Shown here piece by piece: positions 13,250 to 37,163 of a stretch of DNA of 64,000 nt. Under the pieces are notes generated by a model. It was not told where the DNA came from. It searched no databases and worked only from the letters and a program-made list of their open reading frames with translations. The stretch covers positions 32,001 through 96,000 of the forward strand of contig JANNVX010000014.1 in NCBI GenBank assembly GCA_031414595.1, written 5' to 3'. The number at the start of each line of letters is the position of its first letter. Position 1 is the first letter of the stretch. The stretch is from Deinococcales bacterium (GTDB lineage: Bacteria; Deinococcota; Deinococci; Deinococcales; JAAFIG01). Made by a program: the position numbers and the translations under genes.

Positions 13250-13257
13250 GGAATAAT

Positions 13258-14911: not shown

Positions 14912-14945
14912 ATTGTTACAATTCGCTTTGCCATCCTCTTAGACA

Positions 14946-18117: not shown

Positions 18118-18298
18118 TGTTGCCATCCTCATGCACTTGTAGAAAAGAACCTTGCAGCACCACCACAACCAAATCCCAACGACCACCAATGCTCAAAAAT
18201 CACGATTATGACTACTCAAGTAGGAAACGATACTATTGAGGTCATGCTGTGATGATTGATTTCAAACCAAAAGTAAATCATGAAACCACAAATAATCA

Positions 18299-18688
18299 CT
18301 ACCTACCACGGTATCCAAAAACAAAAGCTGGAACTGGCTTGCTCATCGTCTCAAAGTCGGCTTTGACCTGTTGCCTATGATTGGTCTGACGGGTGCTACC
18401 AGTGGGTTGCAATTGGTCTATCCAAAGTTCCAAAGCATCTTCTGGTGAGTCTTCGTAAACCTCGAGTATTTTAGGTTCGGTCGGTTTGATGCTATCCCAA
18501 TGGATGTACCGATGTAAGCGTTGTAAATGCTGTTCTGGACTTTGACTCGAGGCAATCAGTCCAAGCATGTGTGATTCCTCGAGCATGATTGAACCTGCTT
18601 CTTCGCTTCTTAGAAGTTGCAGTAATTTACTGGTGTAGTCACGCCAGACTGTGTTGACTTCACGTTTTTGACGGTTTCTTTGGCTCAT
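18299..18688 (-). CDS. Hypothetical protein
   Basis: ATG 18688 with GGAG RBS; paralogous remnant at 13989. Confidence 0.7.
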   Translation of the reverse strand: MSQRNRQKREVNTVWRDYTSKLLQLLRSEEAGSIMLEESHMLGLIASSQSPEQHLQRLHRYIHWDSIKPTEPKILEVYEDSPEDALELWIDQLQPTGSTRQTNHRQQVKADFETMSKPVPAFVFGYRGR

Positions 18689-18741
18689 ATGATTTACTCC
18701 TTTTACACATCTTTTGCTTGTAGTTGCTTTTATTTGAGAAA

Positions 18742-19086
18742 TTATCCAAACTTCCTTTGAACCAAACGCCAGCACAAAGTGACCATCAGACCAGCGAATA
18801 GAATCACTGCCCAACTTGGTAATTGCAGAATCACCGCCAAGCTGTATGAGTAAACCCCAGCACAAAAGGTTAAAGACCAGACCAATGGAATTTTGGCAAA
18901 TAATTGTAGAAACGCATCAAGATTATGCCCATAGTGCTTCTCGAGCAAGAATAGGATGATGGCAAAGACCATCAGGCTCGAGACAAGACAAAGCCCAATT
19001 GAGGCATTGACAGTCACGAGTAATCTTGTTGTCAAACCTCCAGCCAGAACTGCAAAAACAAGCAACTCGAGGTGAACCCTTTTCAT
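18742..19086 (-). CDS. Hypothetical membrane protein (about 4 TM segments)
   Basis: Hydrophobic segments; 4-nt overlap with upstream gene. Confidence 0.65.
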   Translation of the reverse strand: MKRVHLELLVFAVLAGGLTTRLLVTVNASIGLCLVSSLMVFAIILFLLEKHYGHNLDAFLQLFAKIPLVWSLTFCAGVYSYSLAVILQLPSWAVILFAGLMVTLCWRLVQRKFG

Positions 19087-19436
19087 GGTGTCTCCAAGTT
19101 CGCCTTGCCAAAAAACCGAGTATTCATTTGTTCTCGTAACCGATGATTCTCAAGGGTGAGTTTACCAAGTAAGCGCTCGAGTAGGATTTCTTGGGCTTTT
19201 GATCGCTCGAGTTGTTTTTGTAGATTCAAATTCTCGGTCTCGAGTAAACCAGATTGTTGTTCTGAACTAATAAAAGCATCATTACCAAAGCGTTCATATA
19301 AAGCTCGCCAAGAAAATAAGGTTGAAGCTAGGATTTTATGTTCTCGAGCCACAGCACTAGGTCGTTTGTGTTGTTCAATGACTTCCTTGACCATTCGCAA
19401 CTTAAATTCGGGGGTGTATAACTTTCGGTTTTTCAT
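19083..19436 (-). CDS. IS3-type OrfA-like HTH/leucine-zipper protein without OrfB
   Basis: RKLYTPEFKLRMVKE...VAREHKI..STLFSWR plus coiled coil ending LGKLTLEN. Confidence 0.75.
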   Translation of the reverse strand: MKNRKLYTPEFKLRMVKEVIEQHKRPSAVAREHKILASTLFSWRALYERFGNDAFISSEQQSGLLETENLNLQKQLERSKAQEILLERLLGKLTLENHRLREQMNTRFFGKANLETP

Positions 19437-19903
19437 GGTCTAGTCCTTACATTAAATGTAATCGTGTGAATCACGGTATCTTTTGTATCTCGAGGAAGTT
19501 CAGTAAGCTCTAATTGATGCTCGTTATTTAGGGTAAAAGCTATGGTGATTCGGCTTTTGGTTAAAGTCCATCCATCACTATTTACAGCACTTGATTCAAG
19601 AACTTGTAAAAAAGTGGTTAGAGCTTTCTCAAAGGTCGTCATAAATTGGGGGATTGGTGTTCCAAAATCATTAACAGTAAAACTTTGGCTATCCACTGAA
19701 AATTCAATGTGTACAAGTTCTTCCTTGGTGGTTACGCTGGTTGCAAGGTTTAGTTCGCTTGCTTTTCGGGTTTTGCTTGCTTTATCGAGATAGAACGCCC
19801 ATGTCACTTGGGTGATCTGAATTCTTGTGCCTAAAAGGTTATAGGTGTGCGCTATATTGAAGGTGCTTTGTACCGCACCAAGATAATCAATGGGCTGGTT
19901 CAT
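19433..19903 (-). CDS. Hypothetical protein
   Basis: Coupled by 4-nt overlaps on both sides. Confidence 0.65.
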   Translation of the reverse strand: MNQPIDYLGAVQSTFNIAHTYNLLGTRIQITQVTWAFYLDKASKTRKASELNLATSVTTKEELVHIEFSVDSQSFTVNDFGTPIPQFMTTFEKALTTFLQVLESSAVNSDGWTLTKSRITIAFTLNNEHQLELTELPRDTKDTVIHTITFNVRTRP

Positions 19904-20619
19904 TCTCGTGTCCCTAAGCCTAACTCGAGACCATCATCCAAAAGATGGTTTTCATGCTCGTTAGTTAAATTTTCCTCGAGAATAACTTTGCGTTTCATGG
20001 GTGGAATCCATTTCTTCCAATGCTCTGGGATTTCTAATCGCATTGGCTTGAGATTTTGAGCAATTAAGAAACCATGCTCGAGAACCCCAGTCATGTGTAG
20101 ATACCGAGCATCTTCGACCAAATTCAGTAAATCGAGGGTGGTTTTAGCACTGACCACAAATGGTTCTATTTTTTTGTTGTCTGGTGGGTAAACTCGCAGC
20201 AATACTAATTTCTCAGCTCGGTCTAAACGGAGGACTTTGCCAGCCGCACTCCAGAAGGTATCAGCACCATTCAAATCAACGGCATTCTCGAGGGGCATGA
20301 CTCGAGCCAAGGTGAGGTTGGCTAAGCGTTGGTCTTTGAAGGTCTTGCCGTACAACGTGGCTCTCCAAGTACCAGAGAGTTGGATTGAAGACTGTTCAGG
20401 GTGGGTGTTGCGCCACCTCGAGAAAACCCTTGGGTGAACTCGAGCGATGTAAGTACCATTTTTTGGATTGCCAAGTTGAATGGTGACTCGAGTGTTTTGC
20501 TGGTCATCTTGGATGGTGGCATTGGCTTGGATGAAGAAATGGTGGTTATAGTCGGTGTGAATACCTTTTGGCATTGGCTGTGGTGTGGTTACAAGAGTTT
20601 CAAAAACGTCATTTGACAT
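19900..20619 (-). CDS. Hypothetical protein, paralog of 20652-21248
   Basis: Shared WSA.G...D....LV..RVYP.....PF..SA motif; RBS GGAG. Confidence 0.75.
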   Translation of the reverse strand: MSNDVFETLVTTPQPMPKGIHTDYNHHFFIQANATIQDDQQNTRVTIQLGNPKNGTYIARVHPRVFSRWRNTHPEQSSIQLSGTWRATLYGKTFKDQRLANLTLARVMPLENAVDLNGADTFWSAAGKVLRLDRAEKLVLLRVYPPDNKKIEPFVVSAKTTLDLLNLVEDARYLHMTGVLEHGFLIAQNLKPMRLEIPEHWKKWIPPMKRKVILEENLTNEHENHLLDDGLELGLGTRE

Positions 20620-20651
20620 GCTATCTCCTATTCACGGGTTTCTTATCGTCT

Positions 20652-21248
20652 TTAGTTGGCTTTCCAGTTGCGCCAACGATCAGGAATTTCTAAATCTTGA
20701 TTGGTTAATACTTCTGCAACAAGCTTTTTGCCACTTAAGTTCCCTATCAAATGGACAAACTCATTTTTTCTTGGCAACTCTTGTTCTACTTTCAAACTGG
20801 CTGAAATCAAAAATGGCGTGGCTCGAGCTTGCTCAGGGTAAACCCGAATCGTGACCAATCGGTGTATTGGGTCACTTTTGGTGATTTGTCCAATAGCACT
20901 CCATCGCGGCTGGTGGGAATCTTCTCGTTCTAACTCGAGGGGTTCAATACGATGTAGGTGAAGTGGTTCAAACAGCACACTATCGTTCAAAGTGCGGAAA
21001 TGAAGCGTACATAACCACCAACGATGACTTGCTGGGTTGAGCCTTAACACATCTGCACTGGCTTTAACCCGAAGCATGGTGCTATCGGAGAGTTGGATGT
21101 CCATATTGTTACCGCTCCCTGAATCGTAAATACAAGCCGCCACTCGCATAAAAGCATGGCATCCATCAGGAATAGGAAAATCAAAAGTGAGTTTTCGTGG
21201 GGTAGTGGTCAATGGTCTGCCTCGAGCTTGGATTTTGTGACTGGTCAT
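20652..21248 (-). CDS. Hypothetical protein, paralog of 19900-20619
   Basis: Same motif; ATG 21248 after AGAGGTGG. Confidence 0.75.
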   Translation of the reverse strand: MTSHKIQARGRPLTTTPRKLTFDFPIPDGCHAFMRVAACIYDSGSGNNMDIQLSDSTMLRVKASADVLRLNPASHRWWLCTLHFRTLNDSVLFEPLHLHRIEPLELEREDSHQPRWSAIGQITKSDPIHRLVTIRVYPEQARATPFLISASLKVEQELPRKNEFVHLIGNLSGKKLVAEVLTNQDLEIPDRWRNWKAN

Positions 21249-21390
21249 AAGAAATGCCACCTCTGTACACATCGGATCGTGTTTGTTACAAAAGGTGGTG
21301 GTGTTAAACGAGATTGATTGTCTTGAACTGCCAACATGAGTTGTAAGCTCAAGTGCTGACCCTAATTGCTTGGGGCATTTACATTATAAC

Positions 21391-21443: not shown

Positions 21444-21671
21444 ATGCCTCGCTTTGCGGTAGACCCAGAGATAATACGTGTTCGCATTCGTCAATTACGA
21501 CTCGAACAGGGTTTAACCCAAGATGAAGTAGCAGCCCGAAGTGGAATCAACGAAAAGCACTATCAAGACCTCGAGACGGGAAGGAAAGCCTTTAATCCTA
21601 CTCTCGAGACCCTCAATGCTTTTGCTTTGACCTTTGAAGTGGAACTGGCTGTCCTTCTAAAATCGGAGTAA
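21444..21671 (+). CDS. XRE-family HTH regulator upstream of the tniQ-cas operon
   Basis: IRQLRLEQGLTQDEVA.RSGI...YQDLE.G...NPTL. Confidence 0.88.
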   Translation: MPRFAVDPEIIRVRIRQLRLEQGLTQDEVAARSGINEKHYQDLETGRKAFNPTLETLNAFALTFEVELAVLLKSE

Positions 21672-21838: not shown

Positions 21839-22798
21839 GTGTTTCATATGATTGAAACTGCCAAAAACCCACACTGGGCAATCCACCCTCAAATCCAAAA
21901 TGGTGAGTTGTTTGAATCTTGGATTGTGCGGTTGAGTGCCGAAAATGGCTTTCGCCTGCGCGAAGTGATACAGCAATTAGAACTCAAAAATGTCTTTTGT
22001 TCTAAAAACAATGTTGAGATCAAAGCCGTAAGAAAATTGTCGGATGCAACTGGGATACTTCAATATCGAATCCTCGAATCCCATCTTGGGTGGCTTCAAA
22101 ATCACTCTGATCTTGCCTATGCAAAAACATTTACCCTTTGGGGGCGTAGCCCATCGGACACGATACAGCATTTTAAGTTTTGCCCAGACTGTTTTGCTAA
22201 TCAAGACAAGCCACACATACTGCTTGACTGGGCATTTGAAATCACTCAGTTCTGCACGGTACATCAACGACCTTTACTCGAGCGTTGTCCAAAATGCCGC
22301 GAGCCACTTCAGTTTAGTTTGCTTTTCAACAAAACAATACAACCCGAAATCTGCTCTAATTGCAGCACAAAAATGAAAATCCATGCTCGGAAACACAGCA
22401 TTGATTTCAAATTTGGTCTCGAGCTACAAAGACAAATCTTGAGCCTCCGAAAACATGACCAAGTATCACCAAAACAATCACGAATTATCCCAGCAAAAAC
22501 GTTTTTATCAATTGTTGAGCGGATATTTTATCGCTTTACCAATTTACCCAACCAGCAAACCTTCTCTAAATTGACTGATCTCTCAGTTATGTTGCTGGAT
22601 GATCGTTTTTCGCAAGCGTACCGAAGAATAAACGCCCTGACCATTTGTGGCTGGCTTTTAGCCGACCCAATAGTACGAATTATTACTCTGCGCCAATTCA
22701 CGCAAAAGTATGTTGAATACTCGACGGCTATTCAAATTATTTCTGTTCTGAATTATGCACAAGCGACATTGCAACCACGTAATGGAACTTACCAATGA
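21839..22798 (+). CDS. tniQ: TniQ family target-selector protein
   Basis: N-terminal HP....GELFESWIVRLS..NG; zinc-binding FCPDC, FCTVH...LLERCPKC and CSNC; start at 21839 or 21848. Confidence 0.9.
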   Translation: MFHMIETAKNPHWAIHPQIQNGELFESWIVRLSAENGFRLREVIQQLELKNVFCSKNNVEIKAVRKLSDATGILQYRILESHLGWLQNHSDLAYAKTFTLWGRSPSDTIQHFKFCPDCFANQDKPHILLDWAFEITQFCTVHQRPLLERCPKCREPLQFSLLFNKTIQPEICSNCSTKMKIHARKHSIDFKFGLELQRQILSLRKHDQVSPKQSRIIPAKTFLSIVERIFYRFTNLPNQQTFSKLTDLSVMLLDDRFSQAYRRINALTICGWLLADPIVRIITLRQFTQKYVEYSTAIQIISVLNYAQATLQPRNGTYQ

Positions 22799-23529
22799 GC
22801 TTATTTGCACTCGAGGTTTGGGGCGATTACGCCTGTTTCACACGTCCTGAAACAAAAGTTGAAAGACTTAGTTACCCTGTGATGACTCCAAAAATTGCTC
22901 GAGCAATTTTTGGAGCGATCTACACCCAGTTTTCTGGGGGTGAAACACCTCACACAACTTTTTTCTGGCAAGTCAGGCGAATCGAAATCCTCAATCCAAT
23001 TGTGTTTATTTCGTTCTCACACAATGAAGTCAAAGGGAGAGCAAGCACTTACAACATTTTGCGCTCAGTTCATCAGCCCGACGCACTTCAACCGCTCATG
23101 GCAGATGGCAATGATGATTCCAGCAAAGAGACTGGGCGCACCCAACGCCAATCAATGATTTTGCGCGAGGTGCGTTATCGGATATTCGCTGAACCAGTGC
23201 TGTACAATCCAAACCAAAGCAATCTGAAGCAAATCACCCACGAATTTGCTCGACGTGCAGCCAAAGGCAAGTGTTTCCATCAGCCTTTTTTGGGATGCCG
23301 TGAATACATAGCATTTTTCCAGCCAGTTCCGCCCACATTTGGCGTTGGCGCACCGATTTTTGAAGATATTGGTTGGATGATCTACGATACGTTTGATCTA
23401 TCACAGCCAAGCTCAATCACCATTACACCAAGCATTAGTATCTTCAGGGCGACGATTCAAAACGGTGTTCTCGAGATACCGCCGTATGATAGCAACGAGG
23501 TACGCAAACTAGGACTGGGAGTGATTTGA
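22795..23529 (+). CDS. cas5c: Type I-C Cas5 (Cas5d)
   Basis: LEVWGDYACFTRPE.KVER.SYPVMTP; RRA.KG.CFHQPFLGCRE; F.A....GVL. Confidence 0.97.
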   Translation: MSLFALEVWGDYACFTRPETKVERLSYPVMTPKIARAIFGAIYTQFSGGETPHTTFFWQVRRIEILNPIVFISFSHNEVKGRASTYNILRSVHQPDALQPLMADGNDDSSKETGRTQRQSMILREVRYRIFAEPVLYNPNQSNLKQITHEFARRAAKGKCFHQPFLGCREYIAFFQPVPPTFGVGAPIFEDIGWMIYDTFDLSQPSSITITPSISIFRATIQNGVLEIPPYDSNEVRKLGLGVI

Positions 23530-25343
23530 TGCTCGAGGCTCTGATCGAATATGCTCACCGAAAACAATTGGTTCTCGAGCCTGGTTTTGCTGGCAGGCGT
23601 ATTCATTGGTTAATAAATCTTGACTCTAAAGGACAGGTTCAATCCGTTTCTTTTGCAGATGAATCCAAGCGACGAGCGAAGTTGTTTCCATGCTGTCCAG
23701 ACCTGCAACAGCCCCAACTGATCAGGCTGCCACATGTACTTAAACAGCTTGGAATACTATCAACACGAGCAGCCCACTTTTTAATGGATTCATGTTGTCG
23801 TGTGGTGCTTTATCCAGATAACGATCAGTTGGAACAACATAAGACTTTTCTAAACCTAATCCAACTAGCAAGCCAAGAAGTTAGGATATTACGACCAGTT
23901 GCAAAAATGCTTTCAAAGCAAAAGGAAATTGGTCGAGTACATCAAGCCCTCATTCAATTGAAAGCCACAAAAACCGACAAAGTATCGTTTTCGGTGGATG
24001 GAGTGGTCATACTTGAGGATACAACGTGGCATGATTGGTGGCGAAGATTTTATATAACCACAAGCTCAAAGCAAAATTCAGATCGTATGATCAGTCTGGT
24101 TTCAGGAGAAGTTATTTCGCCTGCCAGAACACATCCAGCGCTTAAATCCTTGGTCGAAAAAAAAGTAACTTTTGGAGCGGCAGTAGTGGCTGTGCATAAA
24201 ACTGCCTTTACCTCATATGGGCTAAAACAAGCCGAACACGCCGCCATGTCAGGAGCATCTGCCGCTGCCTATCATGCAGCTCTGGAAGATTTATTGAGAC
24301 AAACTAGGATGGTTCATGGTACGAAAGCGGTGTATTGGTACAACCAAGAAATTCCACTACAATCCGACCCACTGGCGCTGATGTTGCGCGATGAACGCAT
24401 AGATAACATCAACTACCGAAAACAGCTTGAGGATATTCTTTCACAAGCTCGAAAAGATGATTCTCGAGATGTTGCTTGCCATATTGCTGTGTTGCGTGAA
24501 AATGAAAATCGGGTCAGGATTTCATTGTACAAAACGCTGCGATTGAGTGAAGTGGCGGCTGGACTTATTAAATGGCTCGAGGATACTTCAATTGATGGTT
24601 TGGCAGGTACTGGTTTCGTAGTTGATCTACCCAGCGAATTTGCTGGTATGTTTCGTCAACGAGTTGGGGGAAAAAGCGATAAGGCACTTGACTTTCAACC
24701 ACTACTGATTGTGTTGTACCAGCAGATGCTCAACCCCACTCTACCCATTGCGATGGCTCTGGTTGATTATTCACTTAAATCGGTCATTACCAGCTTTGTA
24801 AAAGGCAAATTTCAGGCAGCATTTGCAACCAAGGCAGATTTACCATTGCGACAAAATTTGGTGATTTACATGGGTATTTTGAAAGCATTTTGCCGTCACT
24901 CAGGTGATCGAGACCTATTGCAACAACTGAATCCTAATCATCCTAATTCACACTATCAAACAGGTCGGCTCACTGCGATGCTCGAGCGTATTGATGGGTT
25001 GAATAATCCTCCACATGTTGAACTCAAAAACCAAAGGTTGTTTTTGCAAATTATGACGACACCGAACAATATCCTGCAAGAAAAAATGGCTTCCAGTCAA
25101 CGAAAGCTCAAGCGACTTGAAAGAACTCGACGATGGTTCAGCCTATACTTACAAAAAGAAATGAATACGATTTGGGAGAATCTTGATGCTAAGGTTCGGA
25201 GTAATAGCTCAGTAAAACGCCAATGCTTATTCCTATTGGGTTACTTTCAACAAACCATTTCTCAATTGATTGAACCTGTGCAAAACGATGATTTTTACAA
25301 TTTGGAGTCGAGAACCTTTAAGGAGCAACATGAAACCGATTGA
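23526..25343 (+). CDS. cas8c: Type I-C large subunit Cas8c/Csd1
   Basis: ML.AL..YA N-terminus; AFTSYG..Q...A; C-terminal Y..GRL.A.LE and Q..FLLGYFQQ; lies between cas5 and cas7. Confidence 0.9.
   Translation: MMLEALIEYAHRKQLVLEPGFAGRRIHWLINLDSKGQVQSVSFADESKRRAKLFPCCPDLQQPQLIRLPHVLKQLGILSTRAAHFLMDSCCRVVLYPDNDQLEQHKTFLNLIQLASQEVRILRPVAKMLSKQKEIGRVHQALIQLKATKTDKVSFSVDGVVILEDTTWHDWWRRFYITTSSKQNSDRMISLVSGEVISPARTHPALKSLVEKKVTFGAAVVAVHKTAFTSYGLKQAEHAAMSGASAAAYHAALEDLLRQTRMVHGTKAVYWYNQEIPLQSDPLALMLRDERIDNINYRKQLEDILSQARKDDSRDVACHIAVLRENENRVRISLYKTLRLSEVAAGLIKWLEDTSIDGLAGTGFVVDLPSEFAGMFRQRVGGKSDKALDFQPLLIVLYQQMLNPTLPIAMALVDYSLKSVITSFVKGKFQAAFATKADLPLRQNLVIYMGILKAFCRHSGDRDLLQQLNPNHPNSHYQTGRLTAMLERIDGLNNPPHVELKNQRLFLQIMTTPNNILQEKMASSQRKLKRLERTRRWFSLYLQKEMNTIWENLDAKVRSNSSVKRQCLFLLGYFQQTISQLIEPVQNDDFYNLESRTFKEQHETD
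24918..25343 (+). CDS. cas11: Putative internally translated Cas11 (141 aa, in frame within cas8c)
   Basis: AGGTGA at 24902-24907, then an in-frame TTG at 24918 just before the Y..GRL motif. Confidence 0.55.
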   Translation: MQQLNPNHPNSHYQTGRLTAMLERIDGLNNPPHVELKNQRLFLQIMTTPNNILQEKMASSQRKLKRLERTRRWFSLYLQKEMNTIWENLDAKVRSNSSVKRQCLFLLGYFQQTISQLIEPVQNDDFYNLESRTFKEQHETD

Positions 25344-26295
25344 AAATCGCTACGAATTTCTACTCATTTTTGATTGCGAAAATGGCAATCCCAATGGTGA
25401 TCCCGACGCAGAAAACCTTCCAAGAATAGACTCCCAAGACGGTCATGGATTGGTCTCTCCAGAATCAATCAAACGAAAGATTCGTGACCGTATTGCCCTG
25501 AATGGTATAGAAATCTTTATCCAACACCAAACCAATCTCAATCGTGCGATTTTTGCGGCGCGTGAACAGAGTAATACCTTAAAAGACAAATCCACCAAGA
25601 TAACATTACAAAACGCCGCTGCAATTATGTGTAAACGATTTTATGATGTTCGGACTTTCGGTGGGGTAATGACTACAGGTGTCAATTCAGGTCAATTGAC
25701 TGGACCTGTGCAGATTACATTAGCTCGCAGTGTTGACCCAGTTCATATCATGGATTGGGGAATTACTAGAGTGGCTGTTGCCGAAACTGTCCAAGGAGCA
25801 AAAACCCTGGCTGACTACGAACAATGGGAATCCGAACAAAATGCTTCAGATTTAAGAACTATGGGACGGAAAAGCCTGATTCCATATGGATTATTCGTAG
25901 CCAAAGGCTGCATCAGTGCGTTTGATGCGGAAAGAACAGGGTTTTCAGAAGCTGACCTCGAATTGCTCTGCGAAAGCATGTTAGACATGTTTGAACACAG
26001 TCGCAGTGCCAGTCGTGGTTTGATGACCACAAGGCGCTTGGTAATTTTTAAGCATATAGGATCATCCAAAGACCCCAAAGTGCGCCTCAAACAAGCTAAA
26101 CTAGGGCGTATTCCAGCACAAAATTTGCTCGAGTTAGGCAGAATTGTTCGCATTTCTCGCGTCAATAAAGATGCTTTTCCTCGAGCCTATCACGATTACG
26201 ACGTGGTTGTGGATACCAGTGCATTACCAGAAACCATTGAAGTGCTGGATTTAGATTTGTGGGATGAAGAAAAGTTTCGCTCGGCTTGGGTTTAA
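25330..26295 (+). CDS. cas7c: Type I-C Cas7 (Csd2)
   Basis: IENRYEF...FD..NGNPNGDPDA.N.PRID; FYDVRTFG.V; GPVQ; TMGRK..PYGL; ATG 25330 after AGGAG. Confidence 0.97.
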   Translation: MKPIENRYEFLLIFDCENGNPNGDPDAENLPRIDSQDGHGLVSPESIKRKIRDRIALNGIEIFIQHQTNLNRAIFAAREQSNTLKDKSTKITLQNAAAIMCKRFYDVRTFGGVMTTGVNSGQLTGPVQITLARSVDPVHIMDWGITRVAVAETVQGAKTLADYEQWESEQNASDLRTMGRKSLIPYGLFVAKGCISAFDAERTGFSEADLELLCESMLDMFEHSRSASRGLMTTRRLVIFKHIGSSKDPKVRLKQAKLGRIPAQNLLELGRIVRISRVNKDAFPRAYHDYDVVVDTSALPETIEVLDLDLWDEEKFRSAWV

Positions 26296-26467
26296 GCGAA
26301 CCCTTAGTGGCACTAAAATCACCTATAGTTCGCGGAAACCAAATTTCGTCTATGACGTGATTCTTCTGTGCGATATTGAGTAGTGATCAAAAAATTAATG
26401 TTGAATTATTGGGTTCGCAGAATGTATTCCTTTTTGACTTTGTACTATGAAAAGATATACATTTACA
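26296..26467 (+). promoter_or_regulatory. CRISPR leader with predicted promoter TTGACT(26434)-18 bp-TACATT(26458)
   Basis: GCGAACCC...GTTCGC...GGGTTCGC leader-type motifs; AT-rich; ends at the first repeat. Confidence 0.7.
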
Positions 26468-26645
26468 GTCTCAATGGCATCTAGCCGTCGAGACGCTTGA
26501 AACCAAACCCGACGAAAGGATGCACATTACGATAATCCGTCTCATGGGCATCTAGCCGTCGAGACACTTGAAACATTGCCATCTAAAGTCCAATCACATA
26601 CATTGGCATGTCTCTATAGCTTTTAGACATTGCGATGCTCGAGAT
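26468..26645 (+). CRISPR. Minimal CRISPR array: 36-nt repeats at 26468, 26539 and degenerate 26610; two 35-nt spacers
   Basis: Repeat GTCTCAATGGCATCTAGCCGTCGAGACGCTTGAAAC (hairpin, GAAAC end); third copy is 24/36 identical; period 71. Confidence 0.92.
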
Positions 26646-26717: not shown

Positions 26718-26746
26718 TTGAATAAACATAGGACATGAGCTAGGAT
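26718..26746 (+). promoter_or_regulatory. Predicted promoter for the delocalised repeat-spacer: TTGAAT-17 bp-TAGGAT
   Basis: Canonical spacing; predicted start falls at the 5' end of repeat 26751. Confidence 0.6.
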
Positions 26747-26750: not shown

Positions 26751-26808
26751 GCCTCAACGGTACTTAGCCATCGAGACGCTTGAAACTAACCAATTGACCT
26801 ATATGCCC
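26751..26808 (+). CRISPR. Delocalised atypical repeat (26751-26786) plus tRNA-targeting homing spacer (26787-26808)
   Basis: Repeat GCCTCAACGGTACTTAGCCATCGAGACGCTTGAAAC; spacer TAACCAATTGACCTATATGCCC matches the minus strand of 27086-27107 at 18/22. Confidence 0.88.
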
Positions 26809-26890
26809 GAATTTATTTTTTCCAAAGCCTCTTGTTCCAGATATGCGGAGGTCAAAGCCAAAAGGTTTGCTTGAAAGGAGTATTGGGATC

Positions 26891-27038
26891 ACTGACACGG
26901 TAAACGATAAGAAATGATATAGAATTTAACTCGAGTTCGTTAAACACAATGTTTATTTAGGAAAGTTCAATCAGTGCCACGGTAAACGATATTGACATTC
27001 ATAAAAATAATTACTGACAAAGTAAACGATAATTCACA
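26891..27038 (-). repeat. Tn7-like transposon end with three TnsB-type binding repeats
   Basis: ACTGACACGGTAAACGAT (26891), AGTGCCACGGTAAACGAT (26973), ACTGACAAAGTAAACGAT (27013), then 8 bp AATTCACA, i.e. a 5'-TGT terminus. Confidence 0.85.
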
Positions 27039-27043
27039 CCTAT

Positions 27044-27072
27044 TTGCCAAATGTGCATTTTACGGTTAATCT
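27044..27072 (+). promoter_or_regulatory. tRNA promoter TTGCCA-17 bp-TAATCT
   Basis: Canonical spacing, 13 bp upstream of the tRNA. Confidence 0.7.
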
Positions 27073-27085
27073 AGGGGTCGTGCGA

Positions 27086-27162
27086 GGGTCTATAGCTCAA
27101 TCGGTTAGAGCGGAGGTCTCATAAACCTTAGGTTCGGGGTTCAAGTCCCCGTGGACCCACCA
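27086..27162 (+). tRNA. tRNA with CAT anticodon, most likely tRNA-Ile2 (lysidine); elongator Met not excluded
   Basis: Full cloverleaf: GGGTCTA/TGGACCC acceptor, GCTC/GAGC D-stem, GAGGT-CTCATAA-ACCTT, CGGGG-TTCAAGT-CCCCG, ACCA end. Confidence 0.95.
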
Positions 27163-27678: not shown

Positions 27679-30600
27679 TTACATATCCCAATGCACACGG
27701 CTGGTATCTTGGGCTTTTTCAATCACTAAACGGATTGGTAAGCGGTCTGCGAGGGCTGGGACGTGAGTTATTACGCCAACCATGCGCCCTTGGGTTTGCA
27801 GGTTCTCTAAGGTGTTGGCGACCATTTCCAAGGCATCTGCGTCGAGTGTGCCAAAGCCCTCATCTAAAAAAAGTGCGCCTAGGGCTTGGCTTCCAGCTAG
27901 ATAATCGGACAGGGATAAAGCCAGTGCAAGCGAAGCAATAAAACTTTCGCCACCCGAAAGGGTTTTTACGCCTCGAGATTCTAAGCCGTTCCAAGCATCC
28001 CGAACATGAAACTCTGCATCTATCAGTTCGAGCGTATAGCGTTCTCGAGTGATACCCTGCAAGGTTTTGGTGGCACGTTGCAGCAGTTGTTGTTGGACTC
28101 CTGCCAGTAAATAGTCTTGGAATTCATTGCCTTTCATATCTAGGGCTAGGGCAGCGTAAGTGTCAAAGCGTTTTTCTAGCCCGTTTTGCTCACGGCGTAG
28201 GTCTTTAGCTTGTTTAATCTGTTGTTCTAACTGGGTTTTTTCGGCTTCGAGTTGCCCAAGTGTGCGGCGCAAGGTTTGGTTTTGTTGTTCTAAATTTTGC
28301 TGTTGCTGCTCGAGTTCTTCGGGTGGTGTCTCGGGTTTTCTGCCGCCCAATTCTTCAGCAATTTGGTTTTGGCGTTGTTGCACCAACAATTGATTTTGCA
28401 GGTGTTTTTGGATGCTTTCCTCGAGTGCCAAAATTTCGGCTTCGGGTAGGCTTTGGCTTAGCGCGGTTTGGCTGTCTAAAAAACCCAATTCTGCGAGTTT
28501 GGCTTGGGTGGTTTCTTGGGCTTGCATAGCTTCTTGCTGGGCGGTATTTAAGTTGTTGCGTGTGGCTTCTAAGGCACTTTTTAGGCTGGCGGTCTGGGTT
28601 TTAGCGTTTGTGTACGTTTCTCTGGCTTGGCGCTCATTCTGCTCGAGTTGCGAGCGCTTGGTTTTGAGGTTTTCAATCTCGGTTTTGAGGTTTTCATTTG
28701 CGCCAGCTTGCCGTAATTCATAAGCAAAAGCCCCAAGCAGTTTTTGTTTAGCGGCTTGTAAGGCAGCATTGGCGTTGCTGTGTACGCCCAGCCGAGCCTC
28801 GAGTTTAAGCACCAAGGTTTTGCGTTCGCTTTCGATTTCTAGGCGTTGCTGCTCGAGCCGAAGGCTTTCTTGCAAGGCATTTTTTTGTTCTGCCTGACGG
28901 CTTTCTAAAAGCGAAACGGCTGCCTCGAGACGGCTTTGTTGGCTGGCAAGTTGCGCTTTTGTTTTACTCAGTTGCTCAGATGCACTTTTTTCGGCTTGCT
29001 GCAATTGTGTTTTGTTTTGCTGCAACTGCCTAACACGGTTTTCAAAATCGGTGGCTTGGCTTAATTCATTGGCTAAACCAGAAAGTAATTCGGCTCGAGC
29101 CGTTTGTAAGGCACTTTTGGGGTCGGTGGAATCTGAAAGCACATCTTGCCAGCCTTGCAATAGTTGCTCGAGTTCTTCGCTTGTCTCACGCAAGGTTTTT
29201 TCAACTCGAGCCACTTCTTTAGCTGCACTCATTTTATTTTGTTCATGGTTTTTAGCAGCTTCTTTTAAGCGAGTGAATTCATCACGTAAACGGCTGACCT
29301 CGAGCAATCCAACTTGCAGGGCTTTTTCGGACGTTGGCACATTGGCATTAAAATCTGGCAGGGTTTTAAGTGGTTCGCCACACACAGGGCAAGGGTCGCC
29401 GATATTTAAGTCGCGTACCAATTCAGCCGCGATATTCTCACGTTTTGCGGCTTCGAGTTTTGCCTCGAGTTCTTTTTGAGTGGCTGCCGCGATTTTCCCA
29501 TCGCTCAGAACCGTGTTTTGCATGGTTTTTGTTTCTTCAAGTTGGGCTTCCCATTGTAGCAGTTCATCCCTTGCCGTCTCGAGTTCGGTTTTGGTGTTGC
29601 CAATTTGTTTGACAATTCGGACATGGGTTTTTAATTCGTTCTGGACAGTCATTATTCTCGTCCAAGCCTGTTCACTAAAACTTGGTGCGAGCGGACTGGC
29701 ATCTTCAAGCTGCCCACCAAGTTCGCTTAAACGTTTTAATTTGGGTTTTAACGCCTCGAGTCCACGCAGTTCTTCTTCTAAAACGGGGATTTGCAGGGCG
29801 GCTTCTCGAGCCGTTTCTAGTGCGTGCATGTCCTCGATTTGTCTTTGCTGCACATCTTCAAGAACTTTTTGTTGCTCGAGTAGCGCGGTCTGGGCTTCTT
29901 TAAGACGAAGACCAACCGTTCCAAGTTCGGCGCGGCGGCGTTCAAGTTCTTTGAGTTGTTTTTGACTTCGTTCCAAAAGTGGTAATTGGGCGCTTAGTCG
30001 CTCGAGTTCACTCCAAGCAGTTTCAGTGAACGGTTCGCCCTCGGCAGTATCGCTCAGGCTTCCACCCAAGGCTTCCAATCGTTCTAAACGCGGCACAAGC
30101 GCCGTTAAAGCCACCACCTTATCCTCGAGATGTTTCGTGCCAAGGGCGGCTTCTCGAGCCGTTTCTAAAGCCTCTAAATGCTGTTGCTCGAGCCTGTGCG
30201 CCGACTCAAAACGCTGCTGGGCGGTTTCAGCTTCCCGTTTAATTTGACCAAGCCGCGCTTCAAGTTTTATGTTTTGTTCAATCAATGGCAAAATACTCGC
30301 CACGCGCCGTGCAGCTTTAGCTTGGGTTTGTAGTGCTTCAATTTTTGCTTGGGCAGCCTCTAAACCCTGCCACTCGAGTTTTACATTTTGCAGCGCGGTT
30401 TCTAAACGCCAGATGTCCCTTGCCTCAATCAGTGCCGTCTTTAACCGCTCGAGTTGCTGACCTGTCTGCTCGAGTTCCCTTTGTTTTTGCAGTTGTGTGG
30501 TTTCTAGCGTCTCGAGCGCTTCTGGTGTGGCAGTGGAGAGCGATTCTAACTGAATTTGCAATGCCTCAGATTTAGTTTTGGCTTCTCGAGCCAGTTCACC

Positions 30601-31134
30601 ACTGCGTTTTTGGATGTTTTCGATTCGCTCTAAACCAATCAAATTCTTGAGTAAATCACGGCGTTGCTTGGGTTCACCGCGCAAAAAACGATCAAATTCA
30701 CCCTGCGGTAACAGTACCGCTCGAGTAAAACCTTCAAAATCCAAACCGACGGTGCGTTCAATCGCTTCAGCAACTTCTTTTTTCTTGATTTGCTCAACCG
30801 CCGTAACCCATTTATCATTTTCCAAGCGCTCAAACCGAACTTCCGAACTTTTACTCGAATAAGTGCGAGCCACACGATATTTGCGTCCATCAGAGGCTTC
30901 AAATTCAAGACTTAAACTCATGCCGCTACTGCCTTGGGCAATCAGTTCCTTGGCGGGTTTAGAACCTAAACGCGGGGTTTGTTCAAACAGTGCAAAGGTC
31001 AGGGCATCTAAAATACTCGATTTTCCCGCGCCAGTCTGCCCAACAATTGCAAATAACTCGAGATTCGAGAAGTCAATCACCGTCAAATCCCTAAAACACG
31101 TAAAACCCTGCAATTCTAAGCGAAGCGGACGCAT
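27679..31134 (-). CDS. sbcC: SbcC/Rad50-type SMC ATPase
   Basis: Walker A GQTGAGKS, LLPQGEF, zinc hook CPVCG, signature LSGGE, Walker B LFLDEGFG. Confidence 0.93.
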   Translation of the reverse strand: MRPLRLELQGFTCFRDLTVIDFSNLELFAIVGQTGAGKSSILDALTFALFEQTPRLGSKPAKELIAQGSSGMSLSLEFEASDGRKYRVARTYSSKSSEVRFERLENDKWVTAVEQIKKKEVAEAIERTVGLDFEGFTRAVLLPQGEFDRFLRGEPKQRRDLLKNLIGLERIENIQKRSGELAREAKTKSEALQIQLESLSTATPEALETLETTQLQKQRELEQTGQQLERLKTALIEARDIWRLETALQNVKLEWQGLEAAQAKIEALQTQAKAARRVASILPLIEQNIKLEARLGQIKREAETAQQRFESAHRLEQQHLEALETAREAALGTKHLEDKVVALTALVPRLERLEALGGSLSDTAEGEPFTETAWSELERLSAQLPLLERSQKQLKELERRRAELGTVGLRLKEAQTALLEQQKVLEDVQQRQIEDMHALETAREAALQIPVLEEELRGLEALKPKLKRLSELGGQLEDASPLAPSFSEQAWTRIMTVQNELKTHVRIVKQIGNTKTELETARDELLQWEAQLEETKTMQNTVLSDGKIAAATQKELEAKLEAAKRENIAAELVRDLNIGDPCPVCGEPLKTLPDFNANVPTSEKALQVGLLEVSRLRDEFTRLKEAAKNHEQNKMSAAKEVARVEKTLRETSEELEQLLQGWQDVLSDSTDPKSALQTARAELLSGLANELSQATDFENRVRQLQQNKTQLQQAEKSASEQLSKTKAQLASQQSRLEAAVSLLESRQAEQKNALQESLRLEQQRLEIESERKTLVLKLEARLGVHSNANAALQAAKQKLLGAFAYELRQAGANENLKTEIENLKTKRSQLEQNERQARETYTNAKTQTASLKSALEATRNNLNTAQQEAMQAQETTQAKLAELGFLDSQTALSQSLPEAEILALEESIQKHLQNQLLVQQRQNQIAEELGGRKPETPPEELEQQQQNLEQQNQTLRRTLGQLEAEKTQLEQQIKQAKDLRREQNGLEKRFDTYAALALDMKGNEFQDYLLAGVQQQLLQRATKTLQGITRERYTLELIDAEFHVRDAWNGLESRGVKTLSGGESFIASLALALSLSDYLAGSQALGALFLDEGFGTLDADALEMVANTLENLQTQGRMVGVITHVPALADRLPIRLVIEKAQDTSRVHWDM

Positions 31135-35660: not shown

Positions 35661-37139
35661 TTAGTAAGAATTATTTTGAGCTAAGTGGCTCACTTGACTA
35701 GCAGTCCAAACGGTGGTTTGCGGAATGAAATTAAAGTTTTGTGCAATTGGCTGGCTCGAGACGGCTACAGCAGGTTTAACACCAAGGCTTTCTAAGGCTT
35801 TCTCGAGTGGTTCGTCTCGTCCTGTGTTGAAGAATTTATATTCAAAGTTTTCGGTCAGTACATCGGGTTTAACTTGAGCAGGTAGGTTCCCTCCTGTTGA
35901 CCACACGGCTTGAATTGTAGGCATTCCAGCCGCTCCACCGTTCGCCAATCCAAAACGGGCGGTGTTGGTGTTGCCAATACCGACAGTCGGTGAACCGAAC
36001 ACTTGGGCGCGTTTGGCTTTCTGGATATAAGAAGCAAAGTATTCACAACCAGAAGCACAACCGCCATCCACCAGGACGGCTAGGGGTCCTTTATAGACAA
36101 CAGGGTTAATAATACTAAGACTAATAAGTTCGACTTTTTGTAAGTTGCGTGCAAAAACTCTTCCAGCGTTGTAACCCCATTCAATCGTGTTTCGGGCTGG
36201 ATTATAACGAGGAGTCCACTGCATTAAGTCTGGTGTTTCGATAAAAGCACCAACCGAAGCAATCGTCTCGAGGACACTGCCACCGCCATTGCTGCGTTCG
36301 TTGTAAATGATGCCTTTTGCGCCTCTAGCAACAGCTTCACGCACAAGTTCATGAAGTTTTTGGGCAACCCCATTGATTTGAAAATCTTTCATGGTAATCA
36401 TCGCAATACCATCTGGGCGAATCTCGAGTCCAGGTTGTTCGGATGTGTTGATCAGTTCGCCTTTGATTGGAAGTTCAATCCGAGTGCGATTGAGACCGCG
36501 CAGTAAAATCATTTTAATCGTTTCGCCAGCCCGTACTTTGGTTGTGAAATCGGCATATGACTTGTTGATATTTTCGAGGTTGCCATCAAAACTAGCAAAC
36601 ACCACGTCGTTATAACCAATCCAACGGTCACCATATTTAATACCTGCCTTATCAGCAGGGGCATCTTTGACAACACTGGAAACAAACCGATCACCAATGA
36701 ATTTACTGGTTAGGTTTCCTTTGTCATCTGTGCTGCATTCACCGGTTGGCGTTTCACAAAAGTTGCGTAAACCAATACCAATTCGAGGTGTTGGACTGGT
36801 GGCTGCTCCGCCTCGGTTGGCATTTTCTTGGGCAACGTTAGCGGCGGTTAGATAGTAGGTATGGTCATCTTTGAAATCATCGAACAATTGCACCAGCAAA
36901 GGTTCAACTTTGTCATAGCCACATTTTTCTTTAAGCTCGCTACAGGCTTCGTCTACTTTAGCTTGGTACTTGGCAATGATTTCTTGGACATTGATGGTAC
37001 TCGGACCAAAATACTGGGTCTCGAGGAAAAAAGCCGCTTGGTCAAATAAATCTTGGGCGGGGCTTCCAATGTATTTCTGGGCGCTGGCAACCGAGCCAAG
37101 CGCGGCAGCAATGGCAATGATTCGTACAAGGTTTTTCAT
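35661..37139 (-). CDS. S41 family peptidase with PDZ domain
   Basis: Signal peptide; [14 protein letters not shown]. Confidence 0.88.
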
Positions 37140-37163
37140 GTGTCCTCTTTTGGAGAATGGGTT

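Follow-up and report, generated by a model that had tools for sequence, protein, structure and literature searches.

Genes of the tniQ-cas operon

In the window, the whole stretch of 64,000 nt that was analysed, tniQ and three cas genes are arranged on the plus strand in the order tniQ-cas5c-cas8c-cas7c, with a gene for an HTH protein in front of them:

21444..21671, plus strand: gene for an Xre-type HTH protein of 75 aa, adjoining tniQ upstream (Pfam HTH_3, E = 3.1e-11)
21848..22798, plus strand: tniQ, 316 aa from ATG (Pfam TniQ, E = 4.5e-16)
22795..23529, plus strand: cas5c, 244 aa, type I-C pre-crRNA endonuclease and 5'-handle binder (Pfam Cas_Cas5d, E = 1.2e-20)
23526..25343, plus strand: cas8c, 605 aa, large subunit and PAM reader (Pfam Cas_Csd1, E = 1.8e-57)
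25270..26295, plus strand: cas7c, backbone subunit, ORF of 341 aa (Pfam Cas_Cas7, E = 3e-80)

The HTH gene is a possible regulator of the tniQ-cas operon. Counted from a GTG at 21839, the tniQ reading frame specifies 319 aa. The protein is small and without a C-terminal DNA-binding extension. Among 5.8 billion clustered proteins, only three close relatives were detected, and the subfamily comprises about 11 clusters that are similar over the full length. In a plasmid collection, nine records matched TniQ at 22-27% identity. The stop codon of tniQ and the start codon of cas5c share an ATGA overlap, and the true start of cas7c is probably located slightly downstream of the ORF start.

The cas genes constitute the signature set of a type I-C effector, cas5c, cas8c, and cas7c. 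Cas5c scored 114 bits with NCBIfam TIGR01876 (cut-off 85) and matched the Cas5c chains 3kg4, 8g9t, 7kha, and 8dex of the PDB. Residues Y46, K116, and H117 (B. halodurans numbering) are described for pre-crRNA cleavage by Cas5c, and the alignment to B. halodurans chain 4f3m spans residues 6-44 only. Cas7c reached 277 bits with TIGR02589 (cut-off 182). Cas8c passed the Pfam cut-off with 195.7 bits and is regarded as divergent, because its score of 152 bits with TIGR01863 is under the NCBIfam cut-off of 218.65. Its nearest canonical relatives, from Meiothermus and Allomeiothermus, are about 30% identical, and its sole match in the plasmid collection is a canonical I-C locus with cas3 on an Allomeiothermus plasmid.

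None of the 52 window ORFs compared with Pfam (24 + 28) corresponded to cas3, cas1, cas2, or cas4, and no Cas6-family match was obtained among the ORFs scanned. No genes for tnsA, tnsB, or tnsC were found among the window ORFs scanned; the element extends past the left window edge. A prediction of a Cas7c-TniQ complex, run without controls, gave a score of 0.00 and weighs neither way. PADLOC returned no matches for 12 unnamed cargo ORFs. With the same program, an SMC-like host ORF (27679-31134) matched LmuB-type models.

CRISPR array and detached repeat

The operon is followed by a short CRISPR array and, further downstream, by a single repeat with its own upstream sequence:

26434..26463, plus strand: array leader with promoter-like TTGACT-18-TACATT (9/12 in the promoter scan), 4 nt short of repeat 1
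26468..26644, plus strand: CRISPR array with two spacers (repeat family D2)
26468-26503, plus strand: array repeat R1
26504-26538, plus strand: spacer 1, 35 nt
26539-26574, plus strand: array repeat R2
26575-26609, plus strand: spacer 2, 35 nt
26610-26644, plus strand: degenerate terminal (third) repeat
26718..26746, plus strand: weak promoter-like element TTGAAT-17-TAGGAT (8/12 by manual count), 4 nt short of the detached repeat
26751..26786, plus strand: detached atypical repeat, 36 nt, putative source of the 5' handle of a homing guide

The array repeats end at their 3' side with GCTTGAAAC and can form hairpins of -14.9 and -12.3 kcal/mol. The terminal repeat, although degenerate, scored 31.5 versus 16.9 +/- 3.0 for shuffled sequences, a value reached by one of 500 shuffles. 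Rfam yielded no CRISPR-DR family, the tRNA described below being the sole Rfam match. When spacers 1 and 2 were compared with the window and with the related locus L001 introduced below, the best match was no better than 13 mismatches.

The detached repeat starts about 105 nt past the degenerate terminal repeat. The original prediction had described it as a lone repeat. It is indeed detached, but not the only one at the locus, since a short array consisting of R1, R2, and the degenerate third repeat lies upstream. It differs from R1 at 6/36 positions, all of them within the first 20 nt. The 3' 16 nt, which contain the handle ...GCTTGAAAC, are unchanged. In type I-C, the crRNA handle comprises 11 nt. 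The hairpin of the detached repeat (-4.9 kcal/mol, z = -0.28) is no better than those of shuffled sequences, and processing by Cas5c could therefore be impaired. The element at 26718..26746, which the promoter scan did not list, resembles the array leader and may be a diverged copy of it. A four-way alignment of both leaders and both detached units from the window and L001 brings the promoter-like hexamers into register, each pair 4 nt upstream of its repeat.

A further repeat copy, 30500-30515 on the minus strand, matched the final 16 nt of the repeat with one mismatch. It was rejected, having no repeat-like stem upstream and lying within a coiled-coil ORF in a genome rich in CTCGAG.

A spacer matching the adjoining tRNA gene

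The sequence directly behind the detached repeat is related to the start of a tRNA gene located about 300 bp away:

26787..26808, plus strand: putative homing spacer, 22 nt, complementary to the plus strand of the tRNA 5' edge
27086..27107, minus strand: protospacer (non-target strand, guide sense), the first 22 bases of the tRNA gene
27108..27110, minus strand: PAM 5'-CTC-3' on the protospacer strand, 5' flank of the protospacer
27086..27162, plus strand: tRNA gene with anticodon CAT, the attachment-site gene (ARAGORN; Rfam RF00005, 72.3 bits)

The spacer aligns without gaps to the reverse complement of 27086-27107 and matches at 18/22 positions, with mismatches at positions 6, 12, 18, and 19 only. 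As ARAGORN places the tRNA start at 27086, the last matched base of the alignment coincides with tRNA base 1; beyond it, only two of 18 further aligned positions agree. The tRNA is either elongator Met or Ile2. Thus, the alignment to the minus strand of 27107-27086 behind a repeat, the positions of the mismatches, the end of the match at the first tRNA base, and the CTC flank at 27110-27108, all reported in the original prediction, were reproduced by alignment, ARAGORN, and Rfam. In three I-C systems that have been studied, CTC is described as working as a secondary PAM; being below the optimum, it counts against the homing reading.

A better full-length match to a phage or plasmid had been named beforehand as a result that would speak against a homing guide. 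With the 40 nt from 26787, 22 phage records were retrieved, the best with E = 2, and one plasmid record over 18 nt with E = 6, none of them significant. Within the window, no other site was found within six mismatches of the spacer.

The match could also be a chance resemblance beside a decayed CRISPR repeat, especially as conserved tRNA arms attract more short matches than statistics on random sequences imply. For a 22-mer with up to four mismatches, 0.0046 occurrences are expected in the window (128,000 positions) and 1.4e-5 per 200-bp flank, counting both strands, and the match begins at the first base past the repeat. Together with the second locus, these values make coincidence a practically negligible explanation.

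An independent replicate

A genome search with a TniQ alignment (9/13 sequences) yielded two loci. One of them, L001, is a distant relative from a Deinococcales MAG, whose contig begins 218 bp before tniQ. The other, L002 from Cellulosimicrobium, showed 24% identity over residues 18-150 and was set aside as too distant. A genome search with an alignment of the three closest Cas8c proteins gave 26 pattern matches, none of which was confirmed.

The gene order of L001, tniQ, cas5c, cas8c, cas7c, is that of the window, and the proteins are 31% (TniQ), 36% (Cas8c), 53% (Cas5c), and 51% (Cas7c) identical. In both loci, tniQ is encoded together with the genes of a nuclease-less effector, the arrangement by which CRISPR-associated Tn7-like transposons (CASTs) are recognised. 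The L001 array has four repeats and spacers of 33-36 nt, and its leader aligns with that of the window. The detached repeat of L001 is 3.1 kb away from the array and inverted relative to it, behind a promoter-like element that scored 9/12 in the scan. It carries 6/37 substitutions, the first base T counted, which its hairpin survives (-9.4 kcal/mol, z = -3.0). A hairpin repeat ending in ...TTGAAAC and a 5'-TTC PAM are the hallmark of type I-C. Hairpin repeats are present in both loci, with TTC as PAM in L001 and CTC in the window.

The tRNA target differs from that of the window. The L001 spacer matches 17 of the last 20 bases of a tRNA-Leu(GAG) gene, ending exactly at the 3' end of the gene, with mismatches at positions 6, 9, and 18 and a canonical TTC PAM. 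The match is unique in the L001 sequence, and 1.2e-5 are expected by chance per flank. The recurrence of the arrangement with another tRNA effectively refutes a fortuitous origin. As in the window, no repeat-like sequence follows the spacer.

Transposon end and insertion geometry

Between the detached unit and the tRNA gene, one end of the element can be recognised:

26888-26909, 26970-26991, and 27010-27031, plus strand: three 22-bp repeats of one transposon end (repeat family D5; spacing 82 and 40)
27032..27038, plus strand: putative transposon terminus ...TTCACA, element to the left, boundary within about 3 bp
27039..27085, no strand assigned: 47 bp of host DNA separating the tRNA gene from the element end, with a weak TTGCCA-17-TAATCT

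The core motif of the 22-bp repeats occurs five times at up to two mismatches versus 0.96 expected. By analogy to Tn7-like ends, the repeats are predicted to be TnsB-binding sites. The same three sites are present in L001, spaced by 83 and 40. When the two ends were aligned, ...CACA was found equidistant past the third site, and similarity ceases there. A terminal TGT/ACA rule is described for the ends of Tn7-like transposons (bioRxiv 10.1101/2021.08.16.456562). Only one end is visible in the window, where neither a convincing inverted copy of the end motif nor a target-site duplication was seen, and the element there may be incomplete. The TTGCCA-17-TAATCT sequence in the host DNA could be the tRNA promoter; it is absent from the promoter-scan list.

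In both loci, the transposon end is located on the PAM-distal side of the protospacer, 47 bp past the match in the window and 46 bp in L001. Counted from the PAM-proximal base, the element is 69 bp away in the window and 66 bp away in L001. An insertion at a fixed PAM-distal distance, next to a match with a guide borne by the element, is thus seen twice.

This geometry bears on the question whether the guide serves integration at all. It could instead direct Cascade to the tRNA gene in order to regulate it or to block further insertions. Guide and target stay 300 bp apart after insertion, so that binding could persist, at an occupancy perhaps adjusted by the weak PAM and the mismatches of the window. 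No precedent for such a role was found in the literature, however, and the fixed PAM-distal geometry of 46-47 bp, which integration predicts, is unneeded for regulation. Moreover, the target in L001 is the 3' end of the tRNA gene, a poor site for repression. A function outside integration is accordingly considered very improbable.

Alternatively, a protein could direct insertion, namely a second TniQ of the TnsD type like that of I-B2 and I-D CASTs, and the spacer resembling the tRNA would be a relic or have no role in homing. In these CASTs, TnsD is reported to recognise the tRNA sites and to place the insertion 29 +/- 1 bp behind tRNA-Leu (PMC9881144), and most of the element is outside the window and may hold tnsD. 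Against this, each locus showed a single gene of the TniQ family among the ORFs scanned in the 27 kb of the element visible in the window and in the 9.5 kb of L001, and the product is small (316 aa in the window). In addition, two very divergent elements, one at the 5' and one at the 3' side of a tRNA gene, each carry a spacer for their own tRNA edge, with PAM, strand, and distance right.

Mismatches in a six-nucleotide phase

Three of the four mismatches in the window fall on the set {6, 12, 18} (p = 0.0026), and two of the three in L001 are at positions 6 and 18 (p = 0.046). With both loci pooled, mismatches occur at 5/6 flipped-out positions versus 2/36 pairing positions (p = 1.4e-4), and no other phase is enriched. 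About 75% mismatches are expected at unconstrained guide positions under free drift. One mismatch per locus, position 19 in the window and position 9 in L001, affects a pairing position and counts against the pattern. The data support the view, proposed originally from the window sequence and now backed by L001 as an independent replicate, that selection kept the pairing positions while the flipped-out positions would have drifted. Conserved pairing with drifted flipped positions would not be expected of a relic either, and homing by a TnsD-like protein is judged quite improbable.

That homing guides have mismatches at sixth positions is in principle already known from I-F3 (Petassi, Hsieh & Peters, bioRxiv 10.1101/2020.07.02.184150, as described there). 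For an I-D CAST, it is reported that mismatches at every sixth position did not reduce transposition, while mismatch blocks at the first five Cas7 sites abolished it (PMC9881144).

A probable type I-C homing guide

From these analyses it appears quite likely that the detached unit serves a type I-C CAST as its guide for chromosomal homing. In both loci, the unit lies apart from the array, has a diverged repeat, and carries a spacer matching the adjoining chromosomal site. The delocalised, truncated homing guide envisaged in the original prediction gains support from the I-C cas operon with tniQ, the I-C-compatible PAM, the position of the transposon end on the PAM-distal side, and L001, all at the level of sequence.

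The unit may be understood as a diverged copy of leader promoter and first repeat, followed by a spacer, and would be transcribed on its own. Judged from the protein families, Cas5c would bind and probably cut the repeat to yield the ...GCUUGAAAC handle, and Cas7c and Cas8c would assemble on the guide. The YTC PAM in the tRNA gene would be read by Cas8c. Pairing would involve the first 20-22 guide bases and the outer edge of the tRNA gene, each sixth base being flipped out and free of a partner, as the mismatch statistics show. TniQ would mark the PAM-distal end for the transposase, and the element would insert 46-47 bp beyond the last matched base and immediately outside the tRNA gene, in line with the geometry of the two loci.

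The size of the complex is less clear-cut. A crRNA of normal length (about 35-40 nt) might be bound by a full-size Cascade, only the first 20-22 nt would pair, and the partial R-loop would trigger insertion; the distal part of the guide would then be a leftover of the flank in a former host. Array spacers of 35 nt (window) and 33-36 nt (L001) fit such a complex, as do hairpin-capable sequences 40 nt (window) and 36 nt (L001, z = -2.3) past the spacer start. Furthermore, the 69 and 66 bp between the PAM-proximal base and the element are within the range of 75 +/- 6 bp from the PAM start given for an I-D CAST (PMC9881144). On the other hand, the post-spacer sequence is no more repeat-like than shuffled sequences (16.0 versus 16.1 for the null in the window), and its fold in the window is no better than that of shuffles (z = +0.75). 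The I-D CAST is described as requiring PAM-distal pairing (PMC9881144), and, from the effect of the mismatch blocks, a 22-bp R-loop in a full-size Cascade might not license insertion. The gap behind the match (47 versus 46 bp) is also steadier than the PAM distance (69 versus 66 bp), a weak argument with n = 2 and ends uncertain by about 3 bp. Taken together, a full-size complex is possible but rather unlikely.

Since no second repeat follows and pairing stops at 20-22 nt, the evidence somewhat favours a shortened Cascade bound to a short guide over a full-length complex that forms a partial R-loop. It is tentatively suggested that I-C CASTs home with a minimal guide, made up of a leader-like promoter, one repeat, and a spacer of about 20-22 nt without a second repeat, and that this guide might be bound by a Cas6-free, shortened Cascade containing three to four Cas7 subunits and carrying TniQ at one end.

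Relation to known CASTs

Homing with detached, atypical, or truncated guides as such is already established for V-K and I-F3 CASTs, according to the descriptions of these systems. In V-K CASTs (Hsieh & Peters, bioRxiv 10.1101/2021.02.06.429022), the guide is also apart from the array, the match is shortened (17 bp versus 20-22 bp here), diverse tRNA genes are targeted, one TniQ was found, and the element lies just outside the tRNA gene. Unlike in the loci described here, however, the effector is Cas12k with a tracrRNA instead of Cascade, the repeat is trimmed to the part pairing with the tracrRNA instead of a full 36-nt repeat with a leader-like promoter, and matches are mostly perfect, whereas drift in a 6-nt phase is observed here.

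I-F3 CASTs (bioRxiv 10.1101/2020.07.02.184150) share Cascade-TniQ, diverged repeats, and a protospacer at the extreme end of a conserved gene. Their homing spacer is the last in the array or lies 80-85 nt past it, comparable to the detached position found here, and it often deviates from the attachment site, in part at flipped sixth positions. They differ by the presence of Cas6 and of repeats flanking a full 32-nt spacer, while here Cas6 and a downstream repeat are missing and the match is 20-22 nt. The I-F3 attachment sites described are guaC, yciA, ffs, and rsmJ rather than tRNA genes. In I-F3c and I-B4 CASTs (Rybarski et al., bioRxiv 10.1101/2021.08.16.456562), a spacer of about 20 bp matches DNA tens of bp outside the transposon end, and a 'mini-Cascade' was proposed. 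In that case, the short spacer is followed by an atypical repeat, the effectors are I-F and I-B, and the function was only proposed. The I-B2 and I-D CASTs (Hsieh & Peters, PMC9881144) are likewise type I Cascade-TniQ transposons at tRNA genes. They are reported to home by TnsD and to use guides only for the other pathway, whereas here the guide matches the tRNA and TnsD is absent from the visible part.

Nine non-redundant putative I-C CASTs are described in the same survey as the I-F3c and I-B4 elements (Rybarski et al., bioRxiv 10.1101/2021.08.16.456562). They have a Tn7-like context and combine TniQ with Cas5c, Cas8c, and Cas7c without interference or adaptation genes, as in the window and L001. 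In these elements the survey found no array, atypical spacer, or tRNA or other attachment site, and it placed tniQ beside tnsABC instead of the cas genes. In the window and L001, tniQ and cas5c overlap, the upstream gene lies on the opposite strand, and an array, a homing unit, and a tRNA site are present. This survey, the one found on homing of I-C CASTs, reports no array, homing spacer, or attachment site and leaves the mechanism open. The gap was repeated in 2024, a 2025 review gives no homing route for I-C CASTs, and in a 2024 review from the Tn7 field I-C is mentioned zero times.

The window and L001 supply the missing parts of I-C CASTs: a short array, a detached homing unit with a leader-like promoter, tRNA sites, a YTC PAM, and a gap of about 46-47 bp. 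Because the I-C effector gets by on three cas genes without Cas6, a functional I-C CAST would stand out as a Cascade-type integration system of unusual compactness, and a natural guide of 20-22 nt bears on the R-loop length that Cascade-TniQ needs to license transposition. If homing by a minimal guide and a shortened Cascade is true, three cas genes and tniQ would be the smallest natural targeting module for type I RNA-guided transposition, and the drift in two lineages, with its 6-nt phase, would preserve an evolutionary trace of mini-complexes that have long been at work in cells.

Organization of the transposon

The window carries a type I-C CRISPR-associated transposon (CAST). Gene calls with Pfam and NCBIfam placed four genes, tniQ, cas5c, cas8c and cas7c, directly upstream of the array and homing region; the stop codon of tniQ overlaps the cas5c start in ATGA. 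A scan of 52 ORFs from all parts of the window found no cas3, cas1, cas2, cas4 or cas6. The array contains two repeats, R1 and R2, and a degenerate third one, the alignment score of which (31.5) was reached by one of 500 shuffled sequences (16.9 +/- 3.0). About 105 nt separate the array from a detached repeat copy.

Features of the homing region and adjacent genes in the window
21444-21671, +, Xre-type HTH gene, 75 aa, directly ahead of tniQ
21848-22798, +, tniQ (Pfam, NCBIfam)
22795-23529, +, cas5c (Pfam, NCBIfam)
23526-25343, +, cas8c (Pfam, NCBIfam)
25270-26295, +, cas7c (Pfam, NCBIfam)
26468-26503, array repeat R1, 3' of cas7c
between R1 and R2, array spacer 1, 35 nt
26539-26574, array repeat R2
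between R2 and the third repeat, array spacer 2, 35 nt
26610-26644, degenerate third array repeat
26751-26786, detached CRISPR repeat copy, 36 nt
26787-26808, homing spacer, 22 nt, gapless alignment to the reverse complement of 27086-27107
26888, 26970 and 27010, starts of a 22-bp motif repeated after the homing spacer
27086-27162, +, tRNA gene, anticodon CAT (ARAGORN)

The three 22-bp motifs, spaced by 82 and 40, are followed by a closing ...TTCACA at 27038, and we read this arrangement as one putative end of the Tn7-like element. Since neither tnsA, tnsB or tnsC nor a second transposon end was found within the window, the element apparently extends past its left edge.

The homing spacer and its tRNA target

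Counted from the first base after the detached repeat, mismatches between the homing spacer and its target occur only at positions 6, 12, 18 and 19 of 22, and the trinucleotide flanking the protospacer 5' on its own strand is CTC. Because the tRNA, on which Rfam agrees (72.3 bits), starts at 27086, tRNA base 1 is exactly where the match ends; past this point, just 2 of 18 positions agree. In every one of these details, from the repeat copy and the 22-nt match to the CTC flank, the observation behind the original prediction was confirmed. By chance, 0.0046 22-mers with at most four mismatches are expected in the window, and no other window site is within six mismatches of the spacer. The 40 nt after the detached repeat could instead be aimed at a phage or plasmid, an outcome named beforehand as contradicting the prediction, but no better target of this kind was found for them.

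A second, divergent locus

The TniQ and Cas8c proteins of the element are very rare. Only three TniQ relatives were detected at E <= 0.001 among 381 candidates, including the protein of the window itself, and an exhaustive profile-free search revealed about 11 clusters that are similar over their full length and make up a TniQ subfamily. For Cas8c, relatives with 50% and 41% identity are followed by canonical Cas8c proteins at <=30%. While a genome scan using Cas8c found no relative, scanning with nine of the 13 aligned TniQs recovered L001, a 9.5-kb contig of a Deinococcales MAG. Its gene order, confirmed by Pfam, is that of the window, with identities of 31% (TniQ), 53% (Cas5c), 36% (Cas8c) and 51% (Cas7c).

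Features of the homing region in L001
5032-5284, array, four repeats
8413-8377, detached repeat, on the strand opposite to the array and about 3.1 kb beyond it
8732-8713, -, match of the 20 nt directly after the detached repeat to the last 20 bases of tRNA-Leu(GAG)

In this case, the 3' boundary of the tRNA gene is exactly where the match stops, and mismatches are at positions 6, 9 and 18. The 5' flank of the protospacer is TTC, the canonical I-C PAM. Between spacer and tRNA, three motifs related to the window end repeats are present (spacing 83 and 40), followed by ...CCACA at 8666. Chance resemblance as the source of the window match is excluded by this replicate locus.

An Xre-type HTH gene is common to both loci, located before tniQ in the window and directly after the array in L001 (5391-5672, -); Rybarski et al. 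(bioRxiv 10.1101/2021.08.16.456562) mention Xre-type regulators adjoining CAST arrays. Upstream of tniQ in L001, a gene on the opposite strand (1-141, -) extends off the contig.

Phase of the mismatches

Every sixth guide base is reported to be flipped out in type I Cascades (PMC9881144; bioRxiv 10.1101/2020.07.02.184150). Three of the four mismatches in the window (p = 0.0026) and two of the three in L001 (p = 0.046), a locus selected independently of this feature, fall on positions 6, 12 and 18. Pooling both loci, with six flipped among 42 positions, places five of seven mismatches on flipped positions (p = 1.4e-4), and no other phase is enriched. Flipped positions are mismatched in 5/6 cases, about 4.5 being predicted under free drift, versus 2/36 for pairing positions. 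As judged from the sequences, this is the pattern that would be expected under long-term selection for guide pairing through Cascade, and it does not fit a spacer decaying as a relic. For the window guide to match at position 12, tRNA position 11 would have to be a G, and a D-stem pair would be lost; therefore, this mismatch probably reflects drift of the spacer and not another tRNA target. Since CASTs are without adaptation genes, the homing spacer is presumably old.

The detached unit

Both homing units appear to be copies of 'leader + first repeat'. In an alignment of four units, leader plus R1 and detached unit of each locus, -35-like and -10-like hexamers are in register, and the distance from the -10 hexamer to the repeat is 4 nt in all four. 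Three of them passed the promoter scan.

Promoter scan of the four units
Window array leader, 9/12
L001 array leader, 10/12
L001 detached unit, 9/12
Window detached unit, hexamers 8/12 by our own count, absent from the scan list

The detached unit of L001 must have its own promoter, because its orientation is opposite to that of the cas operon. In the window, the detached repeat differs at 6 of 36 positions, all within the first 20 nt, so that the handle and the rest of the last 16 nt are identical; its hairpin drops in stability from -14.9 to -4.9 kcal/mol. The L001 copy has 6/37 changes counting the first base, and its hairpin is kept (-9.4 kcal/mol, z = -3.0). No repeat-like sequence follows the homing spacer in either locus. 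Loosely similar stretches, TGCTTGAAAGGAGTATTGG (window 26864-26885) and TGCTTCAAAAAATAATGG (L001 8296-8279, -), are located about 80-100 nt after the spacer start, the former opening with GCTTGAAAG, which resembles the repeat 3' end; they may have arisen by chance in A/T-rich DNA.

Insertion geometry and a possible mechanism

In both loci, the element is located PAM-distal to the protospacer. From the match end to the inferred terminus, 47 bp were counted in the window and 46 bp in L001; from the PAM-proximal base to the first flanking base, the values are 69 and 66 bp. Reported distances are some 43-45 bp counted from the target's 3' terminus for an I-F CAST (a 2024 paper) and 75 +/- 6 bp from where the PAM starts for an I-D CAST (Hsieh & Peters, PMC9881144). 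The signals of the tRNAs themselves are spared: a terminator hairpin of tRNA-Leu (8708-8675) lies between gene and element in L001, and the 47-bp gap of the window contains a weak TTGCCA-17-TAATCT motif, noted on our own reading and absent from the promoter scan list.

In the mechanism we propose, the detached unit would be transcribed, and Cas5c would process the transcript to the conserved handle. Cascade would assemble on the guide with Cas8c reading the PAM, TniQ at the PAM-distal end would recruit TnsC and the transposase, and insertion would occur 46-47 bp further on. We lean towards a Cascade physically shortened on a short guide, because no second repeat is present, pairing does not go past 20-22 nt, the gap counted from the match end varies less than the distance from the PAM-proximal base, and blocks of mismatches towards the PAM-distal side were reported to abolish I-D CAST transposition (PMC9881144). 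Short spacers and 'mini-Cascades' have been proposed for I-F3c and I-B4 (Rybarski et al., bioRxiv 10.1101/2021.08.16.456562).

A TnsD-type protein could direct the element to the tRNA, as in I-B2 and I-D CASTs, and might be encoded beyond the window, but the visible sequence has just one small TniQ, and this route does not explain two tRNAs each with its own spacer, right PAM, strand and distance; we consider it very unlikely. Cascade binding may possibly have a regulatory role, although none of the observations needs it. Two divergent loci support the predicted interpretation by their complementarity, PAM, strand, distance, mismatch phase and gene set. The finding is real, and the spacer is most likely the homing guide of a type I-C CAST, matched to the edge of its own tRNA.

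Cargo and chromosomal flanks

Cargo is located left of tniQ and comprises an Rhs/YD-repeat protein with SUKH immunity genes, a subtilase, a secretin and an antitoxin. The Rhs/YD-repeat protein (window 2-8256, >2041 aa) extends off the window, has a C-terminal intein/Hint motif and is followed by the SUKH-type genes; this region is a polymorphic-toxin cassette, in which 300 nt are duplicated (6946-7245 and 7887-8186, 92% identity). A Big_7-domain protein, the S8 subtilase, the secretin and a 665-aa protein with Chlamydia-PMP-type repeats (8263-17043) may form a cargo module for secretion or adhesion. No recognised toxin adjoins the Xre/MbcA/ParS-type antitoxin gene (17141-17584). Five minus-strand ORFs in 17141-21272 could not be assigned to any Pfam, NCBIfam or PADLOC family, and an IS3/IS66-type HTH transposase fragment is present at 19083-19436 (-).

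Ordinary chromosomal genes are found right of the tRNA, among them four tandem paralogous S41 (tail-specific) peptidase genes (35661-41256, -). The genes parB, parA, gidB, dnaA and dnaN are located in 51840-57538, which puts the element some 27 kb away from the likely replication origin. The DnaA protein shares about 66% identity with those of Deinococcus and Deinobacterium, and the host is accordingly an uncultured Deinococcales-like bacterium.

The most frequent hexamer of the window is CTCGAG, with 281 copies in 64 kb versus about 16 expected from length alone. It ranges from 5 to 33 per 4 kb, being lowest in the first 8 kb, the Rhs region (5 and 5). Enrichment extends to L001 (35 in 9.5 kb) and to an Allomeiothermus plasmid stretch with a canonical I-C locus (40 in 19.8 kb); the hexamer looks like a lineage-wide iterated palindrome. 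A 16-mer at 30500-30515 (-), one base off the 3' part of the CRISPR repeat, was rejected as a further repeat, as no repeat-like stem precedes it. It falls inside a 1151-aa SMC/SbcC-like ORF and is probably a by-product of the abundant CTCGAG.

Comparison with known CASTs

Type I-C CASTs have been reported once, as nine metagenomic systems (bioRxiv 10.1101/2021.08.16.456562). That survey reported finding neither a CRISPR array nor an atypical spacer, and neither a tRNA nor any of the usual attachment sites; tniQ adjoined tnsABC, whereas in the window and in L001 tnsABC is not directly upstream of tniQ. Putative I-C CASTs are again described in a 2024 paper as lacking recognisable arrays; a 2025 review gives homing routes for I-B, I-D, I-F and V-K only, and in a 2024 review 'I-C' occurs nowhere. 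In the literature searched, which included few subscription journals and no supplements, so that an earlier description is possible, no I-C homing guide is described. Within this literature, the array, attachment site and homing guide are the first described for a type I-C CAST lineage.

Similar units are known from V-K CASTs, in which detached, truncated 17-bp repeat-spacer units are reported to target tRNA genes (bioRxiv 10.1101/2021.02.06.429022), and from I-F3 CASTs, where guides with atypical repeats are directed against gene ends, with mismatches partly at sixth positions (bioRxiv 10.1101/2020.07.02.184150). Homing by a guide of this kind is no new principle, being known in three forms; the evolutionary signature of Cascade-type pairing is unusually clear in this I-C lineage.
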